From: Escherichia coli
Lineage (GTDB): Bacteria > Pseudomonadota > Gammaproteobacteria > Enterobacterales > Enterobacteriaceae
DNA length: 64,000 nt
Strand: one strand, 5' to 3'
Assembly (NCBI RefSeq): GCF_048403405.1
Contig: NZ_CP183129.1
Shown here: positions 39,827 to 50,912 of the stretch, in pieces
Position numbering within the stretch: position 1 is the stretch's first letter
How the letters are laid out: every line of letters starts with the position of its first letter
Translations under genes and position numbers: made by a program
The notes under the pieces: generated by a model
What the model was told of the DNA's origin: nothing
Databases searched by the model: none
What the model saw: the letters and a program-made list of their open reading frames with translations, nothing else

Positions 39827-41494
39827 GTGGCTCAATTCGTTTATACCATGCATCGTGTCGGCAAAGTTGTTCCGACGAAACGTCATATTTTGAAAAACAT
39901 CTCTCTGAGTTTCTTCCCTGGGGCAAAAATTGGTGTCCTGGGTCTGAACGGCGCGGGTAAGTCCACCCTGCTGCGCATTATGGCGGGCATTGATAAAGAC
40001 ATCGAAGGCGAAGCGCGTCCGCAACCGGATATCAAGATTGGTTATCTGCCGCAGGAACCGCAGCTGAACCCGGAACACACCGTGCGTGAGTCCATTGAAG
40101 AAGCGGTTTCTGAAGTGGTTAACGCCCTGAAACGCCTGGATGAAGTGTATGCGCTGTACGCCGATCCGGATGCCGATTTTGACAAGCTGGCCGCTGAACA
40201 AGGCCGTCTGGAAGAGATCATTCAGGCTCACGACGGTCACAACCTGAACGTTCAGCTGGAGCGTGCGGCGGATGCGCTGCGTCTGCCGGACTGGGACGCG
40301 AAAATCGCTAACCTCTCCGGTGGTGAGCGTCGTCGCGTGGCGTTGTGCCGCCTGCTGCTGGAAAAACCAGACATGCTGCTGCTCGACGAACCGACGAACC
40401 ACCTGGATGCCGAATCCGTGGCGTGGCTGGAACGCTTCCTGCACGACTTCGAAGGCACCGTTGTGGCGATTACCCACGACCGTTACTTCCTCGATAACGT
40501 GGCGGGCTGGATCCTCGAACTGGACCGTGGTGAAGGTATTCCGTGGGAAGGTAACTACTCCTCCTGGCTGGAGCAGAAAGATCAACGTCTGGCGCAGGAA
40601 GCTTCACAAGAAGCTGCGCGTCGTAAGTCGATTGAGAAAGAGCTGGAGTGGGTACGTCAGGGGACTAAAGGCCGTCAGTCGAAAGGTAAAGCACGTCTGG
40701 CGCGTTTTGAAGAGCTGAACAGCACCGAATATCAGAAACGTAACGAAACCAACGAACTGTTTATTCCACCGGGACCGCGTCTTGGCGATAAAGTGCTGGA
40801 AGTCAACAACCTGCGTAAATCCTACGGTGATCGCCTGCTGATTGATGACCTGAGCTTCTCGATCCCGAAAGGGGCAATCGTCGGGATCATCGGTCCGAAC
40901 GGCGCGGGTAAATCGACCCTGTTCCGTATGATCTCTGGTCAGGAACAGCCGGACAGTGGCACCATCACTTTAGGTGAAACGGTGAAACTGGCATCGGTTG
41001 ATCAGTTCCGTGACTCAATGGATAACAGCAAAACCGTTTGGGAAGAAGTTTCCGGCGGGCTGGATATCATGAAAATCGGCAACACCGAGATGCCAAGCCG
41101 CGCCTACGTTGGCCGCTTTAACTTTAAAGGGGTTGATCAGGGTAAACGCGTTGGTGAACTCTCCGGCGGTGAGCGCGGTCGTCTGCATCTGGCGAAGCTG
41201 CTGCAAGTTGGCGGCAACATGCTGCTGCTCGACGAACCAACCAACGACCTGGATATCGAAACCCTGCGCGCGCTGGAAAACGCCCTGCTGGAGTTCCCGG
41301 GCTGCGCGATGGTTATCTCGCACGACCGTTGGTTCCTCGACCGTATCGCCACGCACATCCTGGACTACCAGGATGAAGGTAAAGTTGAGTTCTTCGAAGG
41401 TAACTTTACCGAGTACGAAGAGTACAAGAAACGTACGCTGGGCGCAGACGCGCTGGAGCCGAAGCGTATCAAGTACAAGCGTATTGCGAAGTAA
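39827..41494 (+). CDS. ettA: energy-dependent translational throttle ABC-F protein
   Basis: 555 aa with two ABC cassettes, MAQFVYTMHRVGKVVP... Confidence 0.95.
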   Translation: MAQFVYTMHRVGKVVPTKRHILKNISLSFFPGAKIGVLGLNGAGKSTLLRIMAGIDKDIEGEARPQPDIKIGYLPQEPQLNPEHTVRESIEEAVSEVVNALKRLDEVYALYADPDADFDKLAAEQGRLEEIIQAHDGHNLNVQLERAADALRLPDWDAKIANLSGGERRRVALCRLLLEKPDMLLLDEPTNHLDAESVAWLERFLHDFEGTVVAITHDRYFLDNVAGWILELDRGEGIPWEGNYSSWLEQKDQRLAQEASQEAARRKSIEKELEWVRQGTKGRQSKGKARLARFEELNSTEYQKRNETNELFIPPGPRLGDKVLEVNNLRKSYGDRLLIDDLSFSIPKGAIVGIIGPNGAGKSTLFRMISGQEQPDSGTITLGETVKLASVDQFRDSMDNSKTVWEEVSGGLDIMKIGNTEMPSRAYVGRFNFKGVDQGKRVGELSGGERGRLHLAKLLQVGGNMLLLDEPTNDLDIETLRALENALLEFPGCAMVISHDRWFLDRIATHILDYQDEGKVEFFEGNFTEYEEYKKRTLGADALEPKRIKYKRIAK

Positions 41495-41505
41495 TGCGTA
41501 AAATG

Positions 41506-41538
41506 CCGGATGCGGCGCGCCAGCATCGCATCCGGTAT
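41506..41538. repeat. REP-like palindromic element downstream of ettA
   Basis: gccggatgcggcgcgccagcatcgcatccgg imperfect palindrome of REP type. Confidence 0.45.
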
Positions 41539-41648
41539 TAGTTAAATGATTAGTCCCCGGAAAAGGCAGAATTTTCTTTAAGCGTATTAGCTCAGATGCG
41601 GACTGACATCTCAAATCAAGCGGGAACTCATGGTTCCCGCTTAACGTT

Positions 41649-42536
41649 TTATTCACCGCGCAGGATCTGGCGGAAATGGGAAACCAGCGGACGTTGGTTG
41701 GCTTTATGCCAGGCTGCCCATAATTGCGTTGAATAATTCATCCACGGCAATTCACGTAATACCACCCCTTCCGGCGCATTATGACGAAGACTATGTTGAA
41801 TTAAGGCCAGACCTAATCCCGCAGCGACCAGACCTAATGCCGTGAGGGGTTCACCAGCTTCCAGGCGAATATCAGGATTAAACCCGGCATTAACACAGGC
41901 GGCGACAAAATGATCGCGAGAATGCGCATCGTCGTTATGAATCACCGCAATCCACTGCTCATCGCCAAGTTGTGACGCGACAAGGTTTTCCTCCTGCGCC
42001 AGAGGATGATTTTGCGGTAAGGCCAACAACATTCGATCATCCAGAACCTGAATATATTCCAGATCCTGCTCGCTGTCGGTGGGCGGCGTATCGACCAGAG
42101 AAAAATCGAGACTGCGCTGGCGAAGGCCTTCAATCTGGGTCGCCGGTGGTTGGCTGTAAAGTGCGATATGCACATTCGGACGCGATACACGTAACGTACG
42201 TAGCGCCGTAGAAAGCACACCGGAATGCATGGCGTTTTCGATATAGCCAATACACAAGCCACCATCTTCCCCCCGTCCCAGGCGTTTGCCTAACGACTCC
42301 AGGCGGTTGGCGTGTGTCAGCAACGAACGTGTTTCGGCAAGGAATGTCTGTCCATCAGCGGTCAGGCGAATGCGCTGCTGATTACGCTCAAACAGCGTCA
42401 GCCCCAGCCGTTCTTCCAGTTGCGCAATCTGGCGGCTCAGCGGTGATTGCGAGATATGTAATCGCTCGGCTGCGCGTCCCACGTGCTCTTCTTCTGCGAC
42501 CACCACGAAGTACTTCAGTTGGCGTAAATCAATCAT
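41649..42536 (-). CDS. LysR-family transcriptional regulator
   Basis: Track ORF 41649..42665; probable start MIDLRQLKYFVVVAEEEHVGRAAERLHISQSPLSRQIAQLE (HTH) 43 codons in; divergent from the reductase genes. Confidence 0.8.
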   Translation of the reverse strand: MIDLRQLKYFVVVAEEEHVGRAAERLHISQSPLSRQIAQLEERLGLTLFERNQQRIRLTADGQTFLAETRSLLTHANRLESLGKRLGRGEDGGLCIGYIENAMHSGVLSTALRTLRVSRPNVHIALYSQPPATQIEGLRQRSLDFSLVDTPPTDSEQDLEYIQVLDDRMLLALPQNHPLAQEENLVASQLGDEQWIAVIHNDDAHSRDHFVAACVNAGFNPDIRLEAGEPLTALGLVAAGLGLALIQHSLRHNAPEGVVLRELPWMNYSTQLWAAWHKANQRPLVSHFRQILRGE

Positions 42537-42668
42537 GTTAGACCTCAAAGGACTTAAGTCAGACAAATTATGTCCTATCAAGTCATAACCTCGCAAGGTA
42601 TTGTGATCCACGTCACAGGGCAATAGCAAAAAACGCCCGAACCCAAACCGAATAATTGAGGACATCTT

Positions 42669-43679
42669 ATGAGCATCAAAAATTTACTTCCCGGCAAAAT
42701 TGGCTTAGGCGGCGCACCACTCGGCAACATGTTCCGTGCCATTCCGGAAGAAGAGGCCCACGCCACCGTGAGCGAAGCCTGGAACCTGGGTGTGCGTTAC
42801 TTTGATACCGCGCCGCTGTACGGCTCTGGCCTTTCTGAAATCCGCATGGGTGAAGCGCTGTCTCAGTATCCACGCGATGAATACGTTCTGAGTAGCAAAG
42901 TCGGTCGCATCATGCTGGACGAAATGGAAGATCCGGCAAAACGGGATTTCGGTGAAAAAGGTGGCCTGTTCGAACACGGCCTGAAAAACAAAATTCTGAA
43001 TGACTACTCTGCTGACGCCACGCTGCGCTCGATTGAAGACAGCCTGAAACGCCTGAAAACAGATCGTCTGGATATTGTCTGGATCCACGACCCGGCGCAG
43101 GACTTCTACGGTGACAGCTGGCTGGAACAGTTCAACATAGCCCGTACCGGTGCGTTTCGTGCGCTGACGCGTTTGCGTGACGAAGGTGTGATTAAAGCCT
43201 GGGGACTGGGTGTGAATCGCGTCGAACCTTGCGAACTGACGCTGGCGCTGGACGAACCGAAGCCGGATGCGTTCCTGCTGGCGGGGCGTTATTCCCTGCT
43301 GGATCACGAACGTGCGCTGCAACGCCTGATGCCAGAAGCACTGGAACAGAACGTGGATATTGTTGTGGGCGGTCCGTACAGCTCTGGCGTACTGGCAGGC
43401 GGCGAGCACTTTGAATATCAGAAAGCTTCTGCGGCCATCCAGCAGAAAGTGGCGCAAATTAACGCCATTGCCACACGTTTCAATGTGAACGTTAAAGCAG
43501 CTGCGCTGCAGTTCGCGCTGGCAAACCCGGCCGTTGCAGCGGTTATTCCTGGCTCCAGCCGTCCTGGCCGTATGGCAGAAGATCTGGCTGCACTGAATGC
43601 GCCTGTTCCGGCTGAATTCTGGGCAGAAATGCGCCGTCAAAATCTGGTTGCGGAAAACGCTCCGCTGCCGACCCGTTAA
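42669..43679 (+). CDS. aldo-keto reductase family oxidoreductase
   Basis: 336 aa; AKR features (YFDTAPLYG, IHDP) in translation. Confidence 0.8.
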   Translation: MSIKNLLPGKIGLGGAPLGNMFRAIPEEEAHATVSEAWNLGVRYFDTAPLYGSGLSEIRMGEALSQYPRDEYVLSSKVGRIMLDEMEDPAKRDFGEKGGLFEHGLKNKILNDYSADATLRSIEDSLKRLKTDRLDIVWIHDPAQDFYGDSWLEQFNIARTGAFRALTRLRDEGVIKAWGLGVNRVEPCELTLALDEPKPDAFLLAGRYSLLDHERALQRLMPEALEQNVDIVVGGPYSSGVLAGGEHFEYQKASAAIQQKVAQINAIATRFNVNVKAAALQFALANPAVAAVIPGSSRPGRMAEDLAALNAPVPAEFWAEMRRQNLVAENAPLPTR

Positions 43680-43698
43680 TCAACCTGGTGAGAAAACG

Positions 43699-44496
43699 AT
43701 GAAACTGGATCTGACAGGTAAAGTCGCGGTGGTCAGCGGCTCAACCTCCGGCATTGGGCAGGGTATCGCCGCCGGACTGGCAAAAGCAGGCGCAACGGTG
43801 GTTGTCGTCGGCCGTAAACAGCGCGGCGTTGATGATGCCATGGCTGCGATTGCGGCACAAACTCCCACGGCGTCACTGCGTGGCGTGGTGGCCGATCTCA
43901 GCACCGAAGACGGCGTGGCTGCGCTGATCGCTGCAGTCCCAACGGCTGATGTGCTGGTCAATAATCTGGGCATTTTTAACGATAAAGATTTCTTTAGCGT
44001 TCCGGATGATGAGTGGATGCACTTCTATAACGTCAACGTCCTCTCCGGCGTTCGTCTGGCGCGTCACTATGCGCCAGGCATGACGGAACAGGGCTGGGGG
44101 CGGATTATCTTTGTCTCGTCCGAATCCGGCGTGGCAATTCCTGGCGACATGATCAACTACGGCGTCACCAAAGCTGCGAATCTGGCGGTCTCTCATGGTC
44201 TGGCGAAACGACTGGCGGGGACCGGTGTGACCGTCAACGCCATTCTGCCAGGGCCAACCTTTACCGATGGCCTGAAAGAGATGCTGGCGGATGCCGCTGC
44301 ACAATCGGGACGCAGTGCGCGTGAACAGGCCGATGAGTTTGTTAAAACCTCACGTCCGAGCTCCATCATCCAGCGTGCGGCAGAGGTGGAAGAAGTGGCG
44401 AATCTGGCGGTTTATCTCGCGTCACCGCTTTCCTCGGCAACCACAGGGGCAGCCCTGCGCGTCGATGGCGGCGTCGTCGACACCCTGACAATGTAA
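43699..44496 (+). CDS. short-chain dehydrogenase/reductase (SDR)
   Basis: Start MKLDLTGKVAVVSGSTSGIGQ (TGxxxGxG Rossmann motif) 34 codons into track ORF 43597..44496. Confidence 0.8.
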   Translation: MKLDLTGKVAVVSGSTSGIGQGIAAGLAKAGATVVVVGRKQRGVDDAMAAIAAQTPTASLRGVVADLSTEDGVAALIAAVPTADVLVNNLGIFNDKDFFSVPDDEWMHFYNVNVLSGVRLARHYAPGMTEQGWGRIIFVSSESGVAIPGDMINYGVTKAANLAVSHGLAKRLAGTGVTVNAILPGPTFTDGLKEMLADAAAQSGRSAREQADEFVKTSRPSSIIQRAAEVEEVANLAVYLASPLSSATTGAALRVDGGVVDTLTM

Positions 44497-44521
44497 CCCT
44501 ATAAATTAAGAGAAAATTATC

Positions 44522-44938
44522 ATGGCTAAAACAACTGTATCGATCGAAATTCCGGCTTCTGCCGACGCCGTATGGCAATTGATGGGCGGCTTTGATGCGC
44601 TGCCTGACTGGCTGCCGTTCATCCCGAAAAGCGTAGTGACAGAAGGAGGTCGCGTTCGTTCGCTGACAACCTCTGACGGCGGCACTGTGGTTGAACGTCT
44701 GGAAGCGTTTGATAACCGTCAACGCAGTTATACCTATTCCATTATTCAGGCACCGTTCCCGGTGGTGGATTACCTCTCCACCATTACCGTTCATGAAACC
44801 GCCGACAGCCAGGTTTCCCGTGTGGAATGGTTCGGTGAATTCACCCCGGTGAATGTGACGAACGAAGAGGCCGAAGCGCTGTTTACCGGCATCTATCGGG
44901 ATGGTCTCAAGGCGCTAAAGGACAACTTTGTTGCCTGA
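44522..44938 (+). CDS. SRPBCC / polyketide-cyclase-like small protein
   Basis: 138-aa ORF co-oriented 25 bp after the SDR gene; family assignment by general resemblance only. Confidence 0.5.
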   Translation: MAKTTVSIEIPASADAVWQLMGGFDALPDWLPFIPKSVVTEGGRVRSLTTSDGGTVVERLEAFDNRQRSYTYSIIQAPFPVVDYLSTITVHETADSQVSRVEWFGEFTPVNVTNEEAEALFTGIYRDGLKALKDNFVA

Positions 44939-45095
44939 TGCGATCGACAGGCGTCGGAACGTCCGGCGTCTGATTATTAACAAAAACAGAATAGTCTATT
45001 GCCATTTGTATCATTTATGTTATCAGGCAGCAGGCGTATTCTCTCCCCATCGCGTTAATAAACGCCAAACAATTAAGACACTCTGGAATATAAAC

Positions 45096-45308
45096 ATGAA
45101 AACGATCATCGCAATTTTTACAGCTTCTCTTTTCTCTGTCGCGGCGTTTAACGCATCGGCACAAAGCGTGACAGCAACCGGTACAACACTGGATTCTGCG
45201 GAAGCGGTTATTGCGCAGAAAGCGAAAGAGATGAACGCCTCTGAATATAAAATTACCAGCGCTCGCATGGGCAATACCGTCACCATGAGCGCCGAACTGT
45301 ACAAATAA
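45096..45308 (+). CDS. DUF1471 (BhsA/YdgH-like) small secreted protein
   Basis: 70 aa with signal peptide MKTIIAIFTASLFSVAAFNASA and ...GNTVTMSAELYK C-terminus typical of the family. Confidence 0.55.
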   Translation: MKTIIAIFTASLFSVAAFNASAQSVTATGTTLDSAEAVIAQKAKEMNASEYKITSARMGNTVTMSAELYK

Positions 45309-45356
45309 CCGCGCGAGGGACCCATTACGTAATTTGCTAAATATGCGCTGAATGCG

Positions 45357-45500
45357 TTGCCATTAAAAAACCGTATTGTAATGCCACCGATGACACGTTC
45401 TCGCGCGGGTGCGGGTGACGTTGCGATTGACATGATGGCGGAGTATTACGCGCAGCGCGCCAGTGCAGGACTTATCATCAGCGAAGGTACGCAAATCAGC
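45357..45500 (+). pseudogene. N-terminal remnant of an Old-Yellow-Enzyme / NemA-like NADH:flavin oxidoreductase
   Basis: LKNRIVMPPMTRSRA...AEYYAQRASAGLIISEGTQIS matches the OYE N-terminus, then the frame degenerates and stops. Confidence 0.5.
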
Positions 45501-45774
45501 AGAAGCGCTGCGCATAATTTTCCATGGCACGCTGATTTACTCCGGTAAATACACCAAAGCGCGCGCCGAAGCGGACTGTCAGATTTGATTGCATTTTGGC
45601 TACGCAACCGGTCAGTTGGAGTATGAAGTTGCTCACGAATAGCCTTAGCATCCGCAATTTCGTAGTGGGTCACCCGTGCAGGTTCTTTCTAATCTCAACA
45701 GCCTCTTCCAGAGAGGTTTTCAACTCATCAAAAAAACTCAATTTATACCTCGCCTTTGAGCCGTTTCGTCACGG

Positions 45775-47007
45775 TTATCTTTGCTCCCCCATCATCTCCC
45801 GCACAAGTTCCACGCAGCGCAGGAAACGGCTGTCGTAATCGTCCTCTTCAACCCGCACGAATTCGATATTGTTCTCTTCCAGCATCTCCACCAGCAAGTT
45901 CTGGAACTCTTTGCGATCCACCGAACTGCCGAGGCTGCGTAAACCATCCGCCACCCAAGGGGTGTTGTTCTCCAGCAAGATAACCAGATCAAAACGGTAT
46001 TCATCGATCAGCGCCTGCACGAACGGATGCTCCCGCCCTTCGTACTTTTTGCAGAACGCCTGGGTAGTGACAAAATCAGTGTCGATAAACGCCACTTTAT
46101 TGGCGTATTTCACTGCAAAATCAATATATTGCGCGTGTCCTAGCGCGATTTTATCGTAGTCGGAATACTGCAATGCGATCTCATCACCGCCAAGGTGTGA
46201 AAAGACATAATCGCGACCATATTCCCACGCACTGGTGGTATTGAAGATATTGGCAAGTTTGTTTACCAGGGTGGATTTACCGCTCGACTCGCCGCCAAGG
46301 ATCGCCACGGTACGCACAAAGAACGGCTTCACTTCGGTGGGAATATATTCCCAGTAGCGGAACGGGTTTTCGCGGATCTGCGCACCGCTGATACTCATAA
46401 AGGTGCGTTTCGGATCGACCAGCACCGTTTCGATCCCCAGATGTTCCATATACTGTGGCGCATCGGCTTCTTCCGAGGTGTAGATCAGGTCCGGCTGGAT
46501 CCCCTTTTCAGCCATAAACTTTTTGATGCCGTTGCTCCATACATCCCAGCCGTGCGGATATGGCTCCATGCCCTCTTCATTGAAAGCATGAATACGGATA
46601 TTTTTCTGATATTTAAAGGTTTGCAATAACCAGCGCAGACGATCCGGCACGGTGGGCTGCTGCGACATGGCGCTGTCTTCAAACAACGCGCGGTCGCGGG
46701 TATCGTCAAACCCCATAATGATATGCAGCTCGTCAACCTGGCTACAGGCGCGCTGGATAAGGTAGATATGTCCGGTATGCAGCGGGTAGAACTTACCGAA
46801 TACCACACCGATCGTTTTCTTCTGCCGGGGAAACTCAAGCCCTAAAAAACGGTGCAACGCCTCCAGCTTTTGCGCGCTGGGGCTTTTAATTTTGGCATTC
46901 AGTAACTGGCTTAAATACCCTTTGGTCATACCGCTGGCATCAGCTACCTGCTGTAGCGTGCAGCCCTGTTGCTTGATGGCAGTTTTCAGGTAATCAAATG
47001 ACGACAT
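45775..47007 (-). CDS. nadR: NMN adenylyltransferase / ribosylnicotinamide kinase / NAD regulator
   Basis: Track ORF 45775..47028; MSSFDYLKTAIKQQGCTLQQVADASGMTKGYLSQLL starts 7 codons in. Confidence 0.95.
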   Translation of the reverse strand: MSSFDYLKTAIKQQGCTLQQVADASGMTKGYLSQLLNAKIKSPSAQKLEALHRFLGLEFPRQKKTIGVVFGKFYPLHTGHIYLIQRACSQVDELHIIMGFDDTRDRALFEDSAMSQQPTVPDRLRWLLQTFKYQKNIRIHAFNEEGMEPYPHGWDVWSNGIKKFMAEKGIQPDLIYTSEEADAPQYMEHLGIETVLVDPKRTFMSISGAQIRENPFRYWEYIPTEVKPFFVRTVAILGGESSGKSTLVNKLANIFNTTSAWEYGRDYVFSHLGGDEIALQYSDYDKIALGHAQYIDFAVKYANKVAFIDTDFVTTQAFCKKYEGREHPFVQALIDEYRFDLVILLENNTPWVADGLRSLGSSVDRKEFQNLLVEMLEENNIEFVRVEEDDYDSRFLRCVELVREMMGEQR

Positions 47008-49542: not shown

Positions 49543-50394
49543 TTAAACACGAGGCATATAGGTCTGATTCCGATATTCAATTGGAGTCAGACCTTTTAAT
49601 TTCAGGCTAATTCTTCTGCTGTTGTAGTATTCAATATATTCCGTAACAGCATCCTTCAGTTCGCTTATATTACTGAACTCATCAAGATAAAAACACTCCG
49701 ACTTTAAGGTTCCAAAGAAACACTCCACCACAGCATTATCCAGACAATTGCCTTTTCTGGACATGCTTTGTTTAATACCATGTTCTTTAAGGATATTTTG
49801 ATATCTTCTCATACGATACTGCCATCCCTGGTCAGAGTGCAGAACAGGATGCTCGTGAGGATTAAGCTTTTTGAATGCCTGATCGAGCATATTCTCAACC
49901 ATGTTCATCACTGGTCTTTCCGAAAGGCTGTAAGAAATAACTTCGTTGTTGAAGAGATCTATTACTGGAGACAAATACAGCTTGCGCCCATTGACTACAA
50001 ATTCAGTAACATCGGTAACCCACTTCTCGTTTGGCCGCGTAGCCTTGAAATCTCTTTGGAGAACATTAGGGGCGGTTTGCCCTACCTCTCCTCTGTAAGA
50101 GCGGTATCGCTTGACCTTAATCGCTGCTTTAAGTGAGAGGGTTCCCATCAGGCGCTGAACAGCTTTATGGTTAATCTGTTTCCCTTCTCGATGAAGAGAC
50201 AGCGTTACCCTACGGTATCCGTATCGGCCTCTATTCTCGTGATAAATCTCACCAATACGCTTTTTAACGTCCGCATACTTGTCAGGCTTGCTGAGAGCCT
50301 TTAGATGGTAATAAAACGTACTGCGCGGTATCTCCGCAGCCCTGAGAAGCTCATCAAGAGGATAAAACTGCCTTAGCTCGTTGAGTACTTTTAC
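49543..50394 (-). CDS. insK: IS150 transposase orfB (DDE domain), expressed as orfAB fusion by -1 frameshift
   Basis: Frame lacks an ATG for its first ~80 codons; track lists only the distal 201 aa; overlaps orfA stop. Confidence 0.85.
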
Positions 50395-50912
50395 TTTTTC
50401 GTGGGATGAGCTAAGGCTTTCAGCTTTTTTAGATACATAAGCCGCGTTTCAAGAAATCGAACTTGCCTTTCAAGATCCTCAATGCGTCGGTCTTTTGACA
50501 GCTCCAATGCTGATGCCGCTTTTTCTGGATCAACTGATATTGCAATGTTTCTTTTGGTGCCAATCTTGAGCGCGCGTAAACCAGCTTCTCCGCGCTCTTC
50601 ATAGACCTTCAGCCACCTGGCTACAGAACCACTACCAGCAAGCATAAAGTGAGCAGCAGCCTGATTAAGGGACATGTGCTGCTCGATCACAGCTTTCACG
50701 ACCTTAATACGCAACTCTGGATCAGCACTAACGCCTTTAGGTTTGGGAATTAAACCTTTTTCTCCATGTTTTTCATAGAGGGCAACCCATGTCCTGACCT
50801 GGGTTCGGGGGACACCAAAACGTGCCGAGATGATCCTGTAACCATCATCAGTTGTGAAGTAGTGATTCACGACTTCAAGGCGCTTTTCAAAAGGGTATTT
50901 TGGCTTTGACAT
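50391..50912 (-). CDS. insJ: IS150 transposase orfA (HTH)
   Basis: 173 aa MSKPKYPFEKRLEVVNHYFTTDDGYRIISARFGVPRTQVRTWV... Confidence 0.9.
   Translation of the reverse strand: MSKPKYPFEKRLEVVNHYFTTDDGYRIISARFGVPRTQVRTWVALYEKHGEKGLIPKPKGVSADPELRIKVVKAVIEQHMSLNQAAAHFMLAGSGSVARWLKVYEERGEAGLRALKIGTKRNIAISVDPEKAASALELSKDRRIEDLERQVRFLETRLMYLKKLKALAHPTKK

Follow-up and report, generated by a model that had tools for sequence, protein, structure and literature searches.

A decayed OYE-family gene and a split nadS at the nadR end of a putative accessory island in Escherichia coli

Class-I OYE enzymes, the "alkene reductases" of Pfam family PF00724 that include NemA, PETN reductase and morphinone reductase, are built as a complete (beta/alpha)8 barrel of about 340 residues encoded in one open reading frame (ORF). 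Their HGANGY motif carries the His/Asn pair that binds the substrate and the Tyr that donates the proton, as structural work on SYE1 (2GOU) and others has established. A second group of genes is known from the DNA downstream of nadR. NadS in its full length of 94 aa contains an HTH_3 domain and weakly resembles antitoxins of the MqsA type. Between nadR and the 94-aa nadS, 673 of 5,426 complete E. coli genomes have a RelE-family toxin gene of 110 aa (bases 2627-2959 of locus L005; Pfam PF06296). The full pair in these 673 genomes, in the order nadR-toxin-nadS-ettA, is a toxin-first arrangement that resembles a type II toxin-antitoxin system of the HigB/HigA-like kind, with a predicted activity to match. 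K-12-type genomes lack the toxin, and their nadS is an ORF of only 55 aa, shortened by REP-like sequence; expression of K-12 nadS was recently reported by PIRT-Seq (PMC12350097).

The window (the whole stretch of 64,000 nucleotides analysed) comes from an E. coli chromosome with the gene order ettA-nadR-radA-serB, and the comparison set consisted of the 5,426 complete E. coli genomes. Comparison of the DNA between a DUF1471 gene and nadR with intact relatives indicates that this region is very probably a non-functional relic of successive deletions, situated at the nadR end of an accessory island of about 4 kb that was inserted in nadS. RefSeq annotation of strain 4621 gives the gene order ettA, LysR-type regulator (-), aldo/keto reductase (AKR), SDR, SRPBCC, DUF1471, two pseudogenes, nadR, radA and serB. 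The sequence identical to window positions 45381-45527 (+) is annotated there by PGAP as an incomplete "hypothetical protein" missing its C-terminus (M5T46_RS20780), and this first pseudogene is labelled "alkene reductase" in other strains. The sequence identical to 45623-45741 (-) is annotated as a frameshifted and incomplete "NadS family protein" (M5T46_RS26880). The locus is already known as pseudogenes from this public annotation, and its decay is ordinary. PGAP starts the OYE relic at an internal ATG (45381); its annotation misses the altered start codon and the C-terminal OYE fragment, and it includes neither the remnant of the toxin gene nor the part of nadS that lies beside ettA.

The N-terminal OYE fragment occupied positions 45333-45500 on the + strand and corresponded to residues 3-58 of 366, the PPMTR FMN-binding strand included. 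When the intact Kluyvera orthologue was compared by tblastn with window positions 45001-46000, these residues were recovered with E=3e-30, and 51 of 58 residues were identical to Kluyvera. The fragment scored 38.7 bits against PF00724 (gathering cut-off 27, E=9e-10) and aligned to residues 15-65 of SYE1 (2GOU). Judged by these matches, its descent from an OYE gene can be regarded as secure, and the first-pass annotation, which had seen an OYE-family N-terminus here, was borne out. Its figure of about 48 readable residues was too low; the readable length came to 56 residues. An ORF of 63 codons opens at a TTG (45357-45548), and its first 48 codons are OYE-like; in-frame homology begins 8 codons upstream of this TTG, at 45333. 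Immediately before it, at 45327-45332 (+), the gene start has been destroyed, with ACG in place of ATG and then TAA in place of TTA for Leu-2. DNA alignment of the start region gave 'AGTATGTTATTCGAT' in Kluyvera (L007) and 'ATTACGTAATTTGCT' in the window, and the translation of 45327-45500 opens with T*FAKYALNAL.

The frame break reported after the N-terminus lies exactly at 45500|45501. In blastn against Kluyvera, window position 45500 corresponded to base 8174 of L007 and position 45501 to base 8861; in L010 the same junction fell between bases 8154 and 8841, with coordinates offset by 20. The alignment broke at 45500|45501 in all four intact orthologues (L007-L010), and 686 bp were absent relative to each of them, although the exact internal breakpoint is uncertain by a few bases because the nearest intact gene has only about 76-86% DNA identity and the true E. 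coli ancestor is unavailable. The junction sequence is CAAATCAGCAGAAGCGCTG. An internal deletion removing most of the OYE gene had been proposed from the sequence, and it could be defined here as a loss of codons 59-287 of 366 together with a frame shift. The motifs lost with these codons were LWHVGR (residue 97) and the catalytic HGANGY (residue 183).

As 686 bp do not make a whole number of codons, the C-terminal OYE fragment at 45502-45570 (+) is read in the +1 frame relative to the N-terminal one. It contained residues 288-310 (EALRIIFHGTLIYSGKYTKARAE), all 23 of which were identical to Kluyvera (23/23; tblastn E=3e-12), and it aligned to SYE1 residues 285-325; the longer version of this piece in strain NA3664 matched positions 288-327 of the NCBIfam NemA profile. 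The approximately 270 bp after the break had been described as without protein-like content, a description that did not hold: they contain this fragment and, on the - strand at 45627-45741, NadS codons 1-43. The OYE gene carried at least four lesions, namely ATG to ACG, TTA to TAA at codon 2, the 686-bp frameshift deletion, and a 3' truncation with a second deletion. Only positions of about 10-60 and about 288-310 of the OYE profile are left, in different frames and behind a mutated start codon, and the surviving codons (56 + 23 = 79 of 366) lie in two frames with no start codon. No enzyme would be possible from this DNA, because 56 + 23 codons comprise neither the TIM-barrel core nor the catalytic His, Asn and Tyr.

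A protein database search with the composite fragment returned only short proteins (at most 155 aa) and did not return an intact orthologue. Undamaged N-termini among these short proteins, P0002 and P0007 included, had the form MLFDxYALNALPLKNRIVMPPMTR and seeded a genome scan, in which the N-terminal 138 residues were the query against one genome per species (100,044 species representatives). Among the matches listed, intact 366-aa genes with 86-88% identity to the query were found in Kluyvera genomosp. 1, Trabulsiella odontotermitis and two Pseudocitrobacter. Among the short proteins, P0002-P0006 include 125-aa products from several assemblies outside this locus; they have an OYE-like start and run out of frame after about residue 80, and they represent either the same OYE decaying in other lineages or assembly errors.

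The closest solved relative of the intact Kluyvera orthologue was SYE1 of Shewanella oneidensis (PDB 2GOU), which aligned end to end (E=4e-135). Against the NCBIfam NemA-subfamily profile (NF007899, cut-off 403) the Kluyvera orthologue scored 392.4 bits, and the two window fragments scored 54.6 and 21.1 bits. PGAP names the intact orthologue only "alkene reductase" because it falls just under this cut-off. The earlier label "NemA-like" is therefore loose, with an orthologue at 392 bits against 403 and SYE1 as the nearest solved structure. The ancestor was a class-I OYE nearest to Shewanella SYE1.

The C-terminal fragment ends at a second deletion junction (about 45567-45570), which has a 4-nt CGAA microhomology and at which 726 bp are absent relative to NA3664. 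In blastn against the NA3664 locus (L003), window positions 45000-45570 matched bases 4701-5265 and positions 45567-46000 matched bases 5992-6435. What is missing is the stretch for OYE residues 311 to about 329, along with AT-rich DNA that carries a GNAT gene. In NA3664 the C-terminal piece runs on to '...ARAELALANGWSDLIGFGRPY' (about residue 329), followed by the AT-rich DNA (38% GC) with the GNAT acetyltransferase gene and then by the nadS remnant. The OYE reading frame extends to the motif GFGRPY in the NA3664 form, and the C-terminal GFGRP motif is kept only in the longer forms of NA3664 and strain 48. Strain 48, a deer isolate, has the identical OYE truncation point but a DUF2846 gene as cargo.

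With a probe of 100 bp that had the first junction at its centre, coverage was complete in 482 of the 482 genomes (of 5,426) that had any of it. The probe for the second junction was contiguous in 440 of these 482 carriers; the 42 non-contiguous ones comprised 20 with GNAT, strain 48 with DUF2846 and about 21 others. The GNAT segment was present in 20 complete E. coli genomes. The second event appears to have been a deletion in this lineage rather than an insertion of GNAT or DUF2846 elsewhere, a direction that we infer because the OYE-side and the nadS-side sequences both continue into the longer forms.

A variable cargo slot separates the two relics, OYE and nadS; it was observed at bases 5324-5975 of L003 (GNAT) and at bases 3057-3989 of L087, the DUF2846 form. 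Beyond the second junction lies a spacer of about 56 bp (45571-45626) common to all island forms; it was found in L003 and L087 and was absent from the K-12 and toxin-antitoxin (TA) forms. No homology of the spacer to OYE, nadS or an RNA family was detected. In the frame of the TTG ORF, positions 45571-45620 read 'GLSDLIAFWLRNRSVGV', which resembles "DLI.FGRP"; this was attributed to chance, the L003 and L087 homologues following the GNAT and DUF2846 cargo and not OYE.

The 5' part of the nadS pseudogene was located at 45627-45741 on the - strand and covered codons 1 to about 43 of 94, with a TTG start in place of ATG. In tblastn, codons 1-43 gave E=1.3e-14, with 81-86% identity to full-length NadS. 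The loss of 10 bp between 45689 and 45690 leads to a stop at 45670-45672, after 23 codons. Homology stops at codon 43, and the HTH domain (residues 35-79, Pfam HTH_3) is gone from the window copy, the island having taken its place; the allele of NA3664, which is not frameshifted, scored 74.7 bits against the NadS profile NF041265 (cut-off 60). An alternative frame past codon 43, 'VAKMQSNLTVRFERKSE', was loosely HTH-like and was rejected as a continuation of nadS, tblastn with NadS having given nothing significant there. Next to the nadS start, the last 10 or so codons of a RelE/ParE-family toxin gene remain as a tail at 45742-45771 (-). The other 395 bp of the toxin gene are deleted in the window, with 3 bases in their place: positions 45627-45771 matched bases 2501-2655 of L005 (nadS start and toxin 3' end), and the match resumed from 45775 at base 3051. 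K-12-type and island-type genomes look like derivatives of a toxin deletion.

At the opposite end of the island, a 3' remnant of nadS was found beside ettA at 41540-41581 (-), comprising about codons 81-94 with a 12-bp gap. Window positions 41301-41581 matched bases 2092-2384 of L005 with 93.5% identity, through the last 44 or so bases of nadS (bases 2341-2625 of L005). With the 3' end of nadS beside ettA and its 5' third beside nadR, the island therefore split nadS. The island proper is estimated at about 41582-45626, or about 4 kb, and replaces 116 bp of nadS. Homology to island-free genomes resumes inside nadS, at 45627 for the TA form and at 45638 for the K-12 form, at least 57 bp past the relic end at 45570, and the nadR-side boundary of the island is placed at about 45626/45627 by these alignments. 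The proposal that the OYE relic itself marks the nadR-proximal boundary was not upheld; the boundary lies about 55-125 bp further on, within the nadS pseudogene, and 42 of the 482 carriers have other DNA in between. The adjoining nadR gene (45775-47007, -) is intact in the RefSeq annotation of identical sequence and in the ORF list, and belongs to the core genome that flanks the island. Further along, between serB and ytjB, an IS3-family element was observed at 49543-50912, with an orfA of 173 aa at 50391-50912 (-) and an orfB ORF of only 201 aa at 49543-50148 (-); strain 4621, whose sequence over 45300-45800 equals that of the window, does not have it at that position. We take this element to be IS150-like.

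Immediately upstream of the relic, the DUF1471 (YdgH/BhsA/McbA-family) gene at 45096-45308 (+) is intact and encodes 70 aa (Pfam PF07338, E=2.5e-11). Its product was 63-86% identical to that of the gene immediately 5' of the intact OYE gene in Kluyvera, Pseudocitrobacter and Trabulsiella, and DNA homology of the module to these loci begins at about 44970-44990, just past the SRPBCC stop. No LysR, AKR, SDR or SRPBCC gene was found near the DUF1471-OYE pair in the Kluyvera, Trabulsiella and Pseudocitrobacter loci. The GC content was 47% in the DUF1471-OYE module and 55% in the block from LysR to SRPBCC. The pairing of OYE with DUF1471 in relatives that lack the other four genes beside it, together with the GC difference, therefore gives the island a composite appearance. 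The OYE gene looks like the partner of the still-intact DUF1471 gene and not a member of the LysR-AKR-SDR-SRPBCC cluster. To call it a fifth redox gene of the island, as was done earlier, makes it too much of a piece with the other four.

The 501 bases at 45300-45800 had a partial match in 4,356 of the 5,426 genomes, were matched over their whole length in 458, and were 100% identical in 8. The missing 686 bp had no counterpart at this locus in any of the 5,426 complete E. coli genomes. When the middle third of the Kluyvera gene was compared with the complete E. coli genomes, one weak match was obtained, to an unrelated alkene reductase beside a prophage at another locus, and it was rejected. 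That gene (bases 3797-4906 of L088, from E. coli Z1323HEC0477) is intact and encodes a different alkene reductase; a LysR regulator of its own and an EthD-family gene accompany it, and prophage tail genes lie beside it. It has 72% DNA identity to the middle of the Kluyvera gene and was seen in a single E. coli genome. Between alleles, the relic segments were 90-96% identical, with indels, and the adjoining intact genes were 96-99% identical, on few sites. The differences in the relic included a 6-bp indel and a change of PPMTR to PPTTR in NA3664. The faster divergence of the relic fits relaxed constraint, with few sites compared.

Three other explanations were weighed. That a full-length OYE gene is present and merely masked by a sequencing or assembly error is practically inconceivable. 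Nothing was found in its favour; the 686 bp (two-thirds of the gene) and the last 56 or so codons are absent, which a single-base correction cannot restore, and the missing middle occurs at this locus in no complete E. coli genome. Recovery of an intact gene by error correction, which the first-pass annotation had named as the outcome that would overturn its reading, is not possible. Because 8 independent complete genomes are 100% identical over 45300-45800 and 482 share the junction, sequencing error cannot, on this comparison, be the cause. A co-opted relic, acting as a small protein, an RNA or a 3' UTR of the DUF1471 gene, has somewhat more to recommend it and is nevertheless judged very improbable. 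The arrangement is kept in 482 genomes, the intact DUF1471 gene upstream is followed by no predicted intrinsic terminator before the relic, which makes read-through transcription plausible, and short ORFs of the region have repeatedly been deposited as hypothetical proteins by gene callers, the candidates being the 63-aa TTG ORF (45357-45548) and a 41-aa GTG ORF (45463-45588). Against this, the start codon is lost, and no Shine-Dalgarno-like sequence was seen on reading the sequence before the TTG at 45357 or the ATG at 45381. Alleles are set apart by the 6-bp indel and by replacements within the most conserved motif (PPMTR to PPTTR, NA3664), and the relic diverges faster than its neighbours. 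The sole Rfam match of the relic region was an implausible snoRNA (E=0.53), promoter and terminator predictions there were at chance level, and an inverted repeat joined by the deletion (45440-45458 with 45505-45523) was rejected, its fold being not special (z=-0.45 against shuffled sequences). From the established OYE structure, for example 2GOU, a 56-residue TIM-barrel piece alone cannot bind FMN.

The remaining explanation has the OYE gene decay in the donor, so that E. coli acquired the island with a dead gene; it departs from the main account solely in where the decay took place and is possible, if somewhat doubtful. All 482 of 482 carriers have the same 686-bp junction, ACG/TAA start and 3' truncation point, with no intermediate found, and the composite island, with a DUF1471-OYE module that occurs elsewhere beside none of the other four genes, would suit such an origin. 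The same facts are explained, however, if the deletion occurred once and early, in the common E. coli ancestor of all carriers, and no donor with the deleted form was among the matches listed from the 100,044 species representatives (N-terminal 138 residues). In either case the 686-bp deletion would have preceded the island's spread among E. coli strains, or its arrival in the species.

The preferred reading remains a non-functional relic of successive deletions, and the following order of events is proposed. A gene for a DUF1471 periplasmic stress protein and a SYE1-like OYE of 366 aa would have formed the last + strand part of the island. The OYE gene would then have decayed through the change of ATG to ACG and of codon 2 to TAA, through the 686-bp deletion that fuses codon 58 to codon 287/288 with a frame shift, and through a cut of its 3' end after about residue 329. 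Another 726 bp were probably lost at CGAA in this lineage, which brought OYE codon 310 up against the DNA next to the nadS remnant. The 686-bp deletion may have arisen in E. coli or in the donor, and the relic probably has no residual function. The nadR-side 150 or so bp are the 5' third of nadS, an orphan and frameshifted HTH antitoxin homologue, beside the 30-bp tail of the lost RelE/ParE toxin.

An imperfect direct repeat was observed just inside the island ends, at 41590-41608 (GCTCAGATGCGGACTGACA) and 45563-45581 (GCGCCGAAGCGGACTGTCA). It was identical at 15 of 19 positions with an 8-nt exact core (GCGGACTG), and the match was somewhat better in the NA3664 form. The chance of such a repeat was estimated at about 0.5% for two 60-nt end windows, yet the island contains many chance repeats of equal length, and this one may be fortuitous too. 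The split nadS, the cargo that varies by lineage (none, GNAT, DUF2846 or others, 42 of 482) and the direct repeat near the ends would fit a role of nadS, downstream of nadR, as a place where E. coli repeatedly integrates and exchanges cargo, although such a role is considered unlikely. If specific recombination does target this spot in nadS, the OYE relic would have been left by repeated turnover of cargo and not by simple decay.

The impact on biology is small, the relic being an ordinary annotated pseudogene for which the island end has been corrected. Base-level breakpoints for the decay of the DUF1471-OYE module are of use for annotation and evolutionary bookkeeping, and the 686-bp junction, fixed in 482 of 482 carriers, might be used as a stable marker of the lineage or of the island. 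The ettA-nadR island sits inside nadS, and the locus downstream of nadR occurs in four states: a toxin-antitoxin pair, an orphan truncated nadS, a nadS split by the island, and the island with extra cargo.

Compared with the class-I OYE alkene reductases, the window relic keeps the PPMTR strand but has neither the catalytic His-x-x-Asn pair and proton-donor Tyr (HGANGY) nor a start codon, and its two fragments fall short of a complete barrel in one ORF. Compared with the type II toxin-antitoxin pairs, the window has no toxin gene, and its antitoxin homologue is broken in place of an intact 94-aa ORF with an HTH domain, so that no adjacent intact pair is formed. What the window nadS remnant does retain is NadS homology and its position beside nadR: it begins 33 bp past the nadR stop, the same place that nadS takes in K-12.
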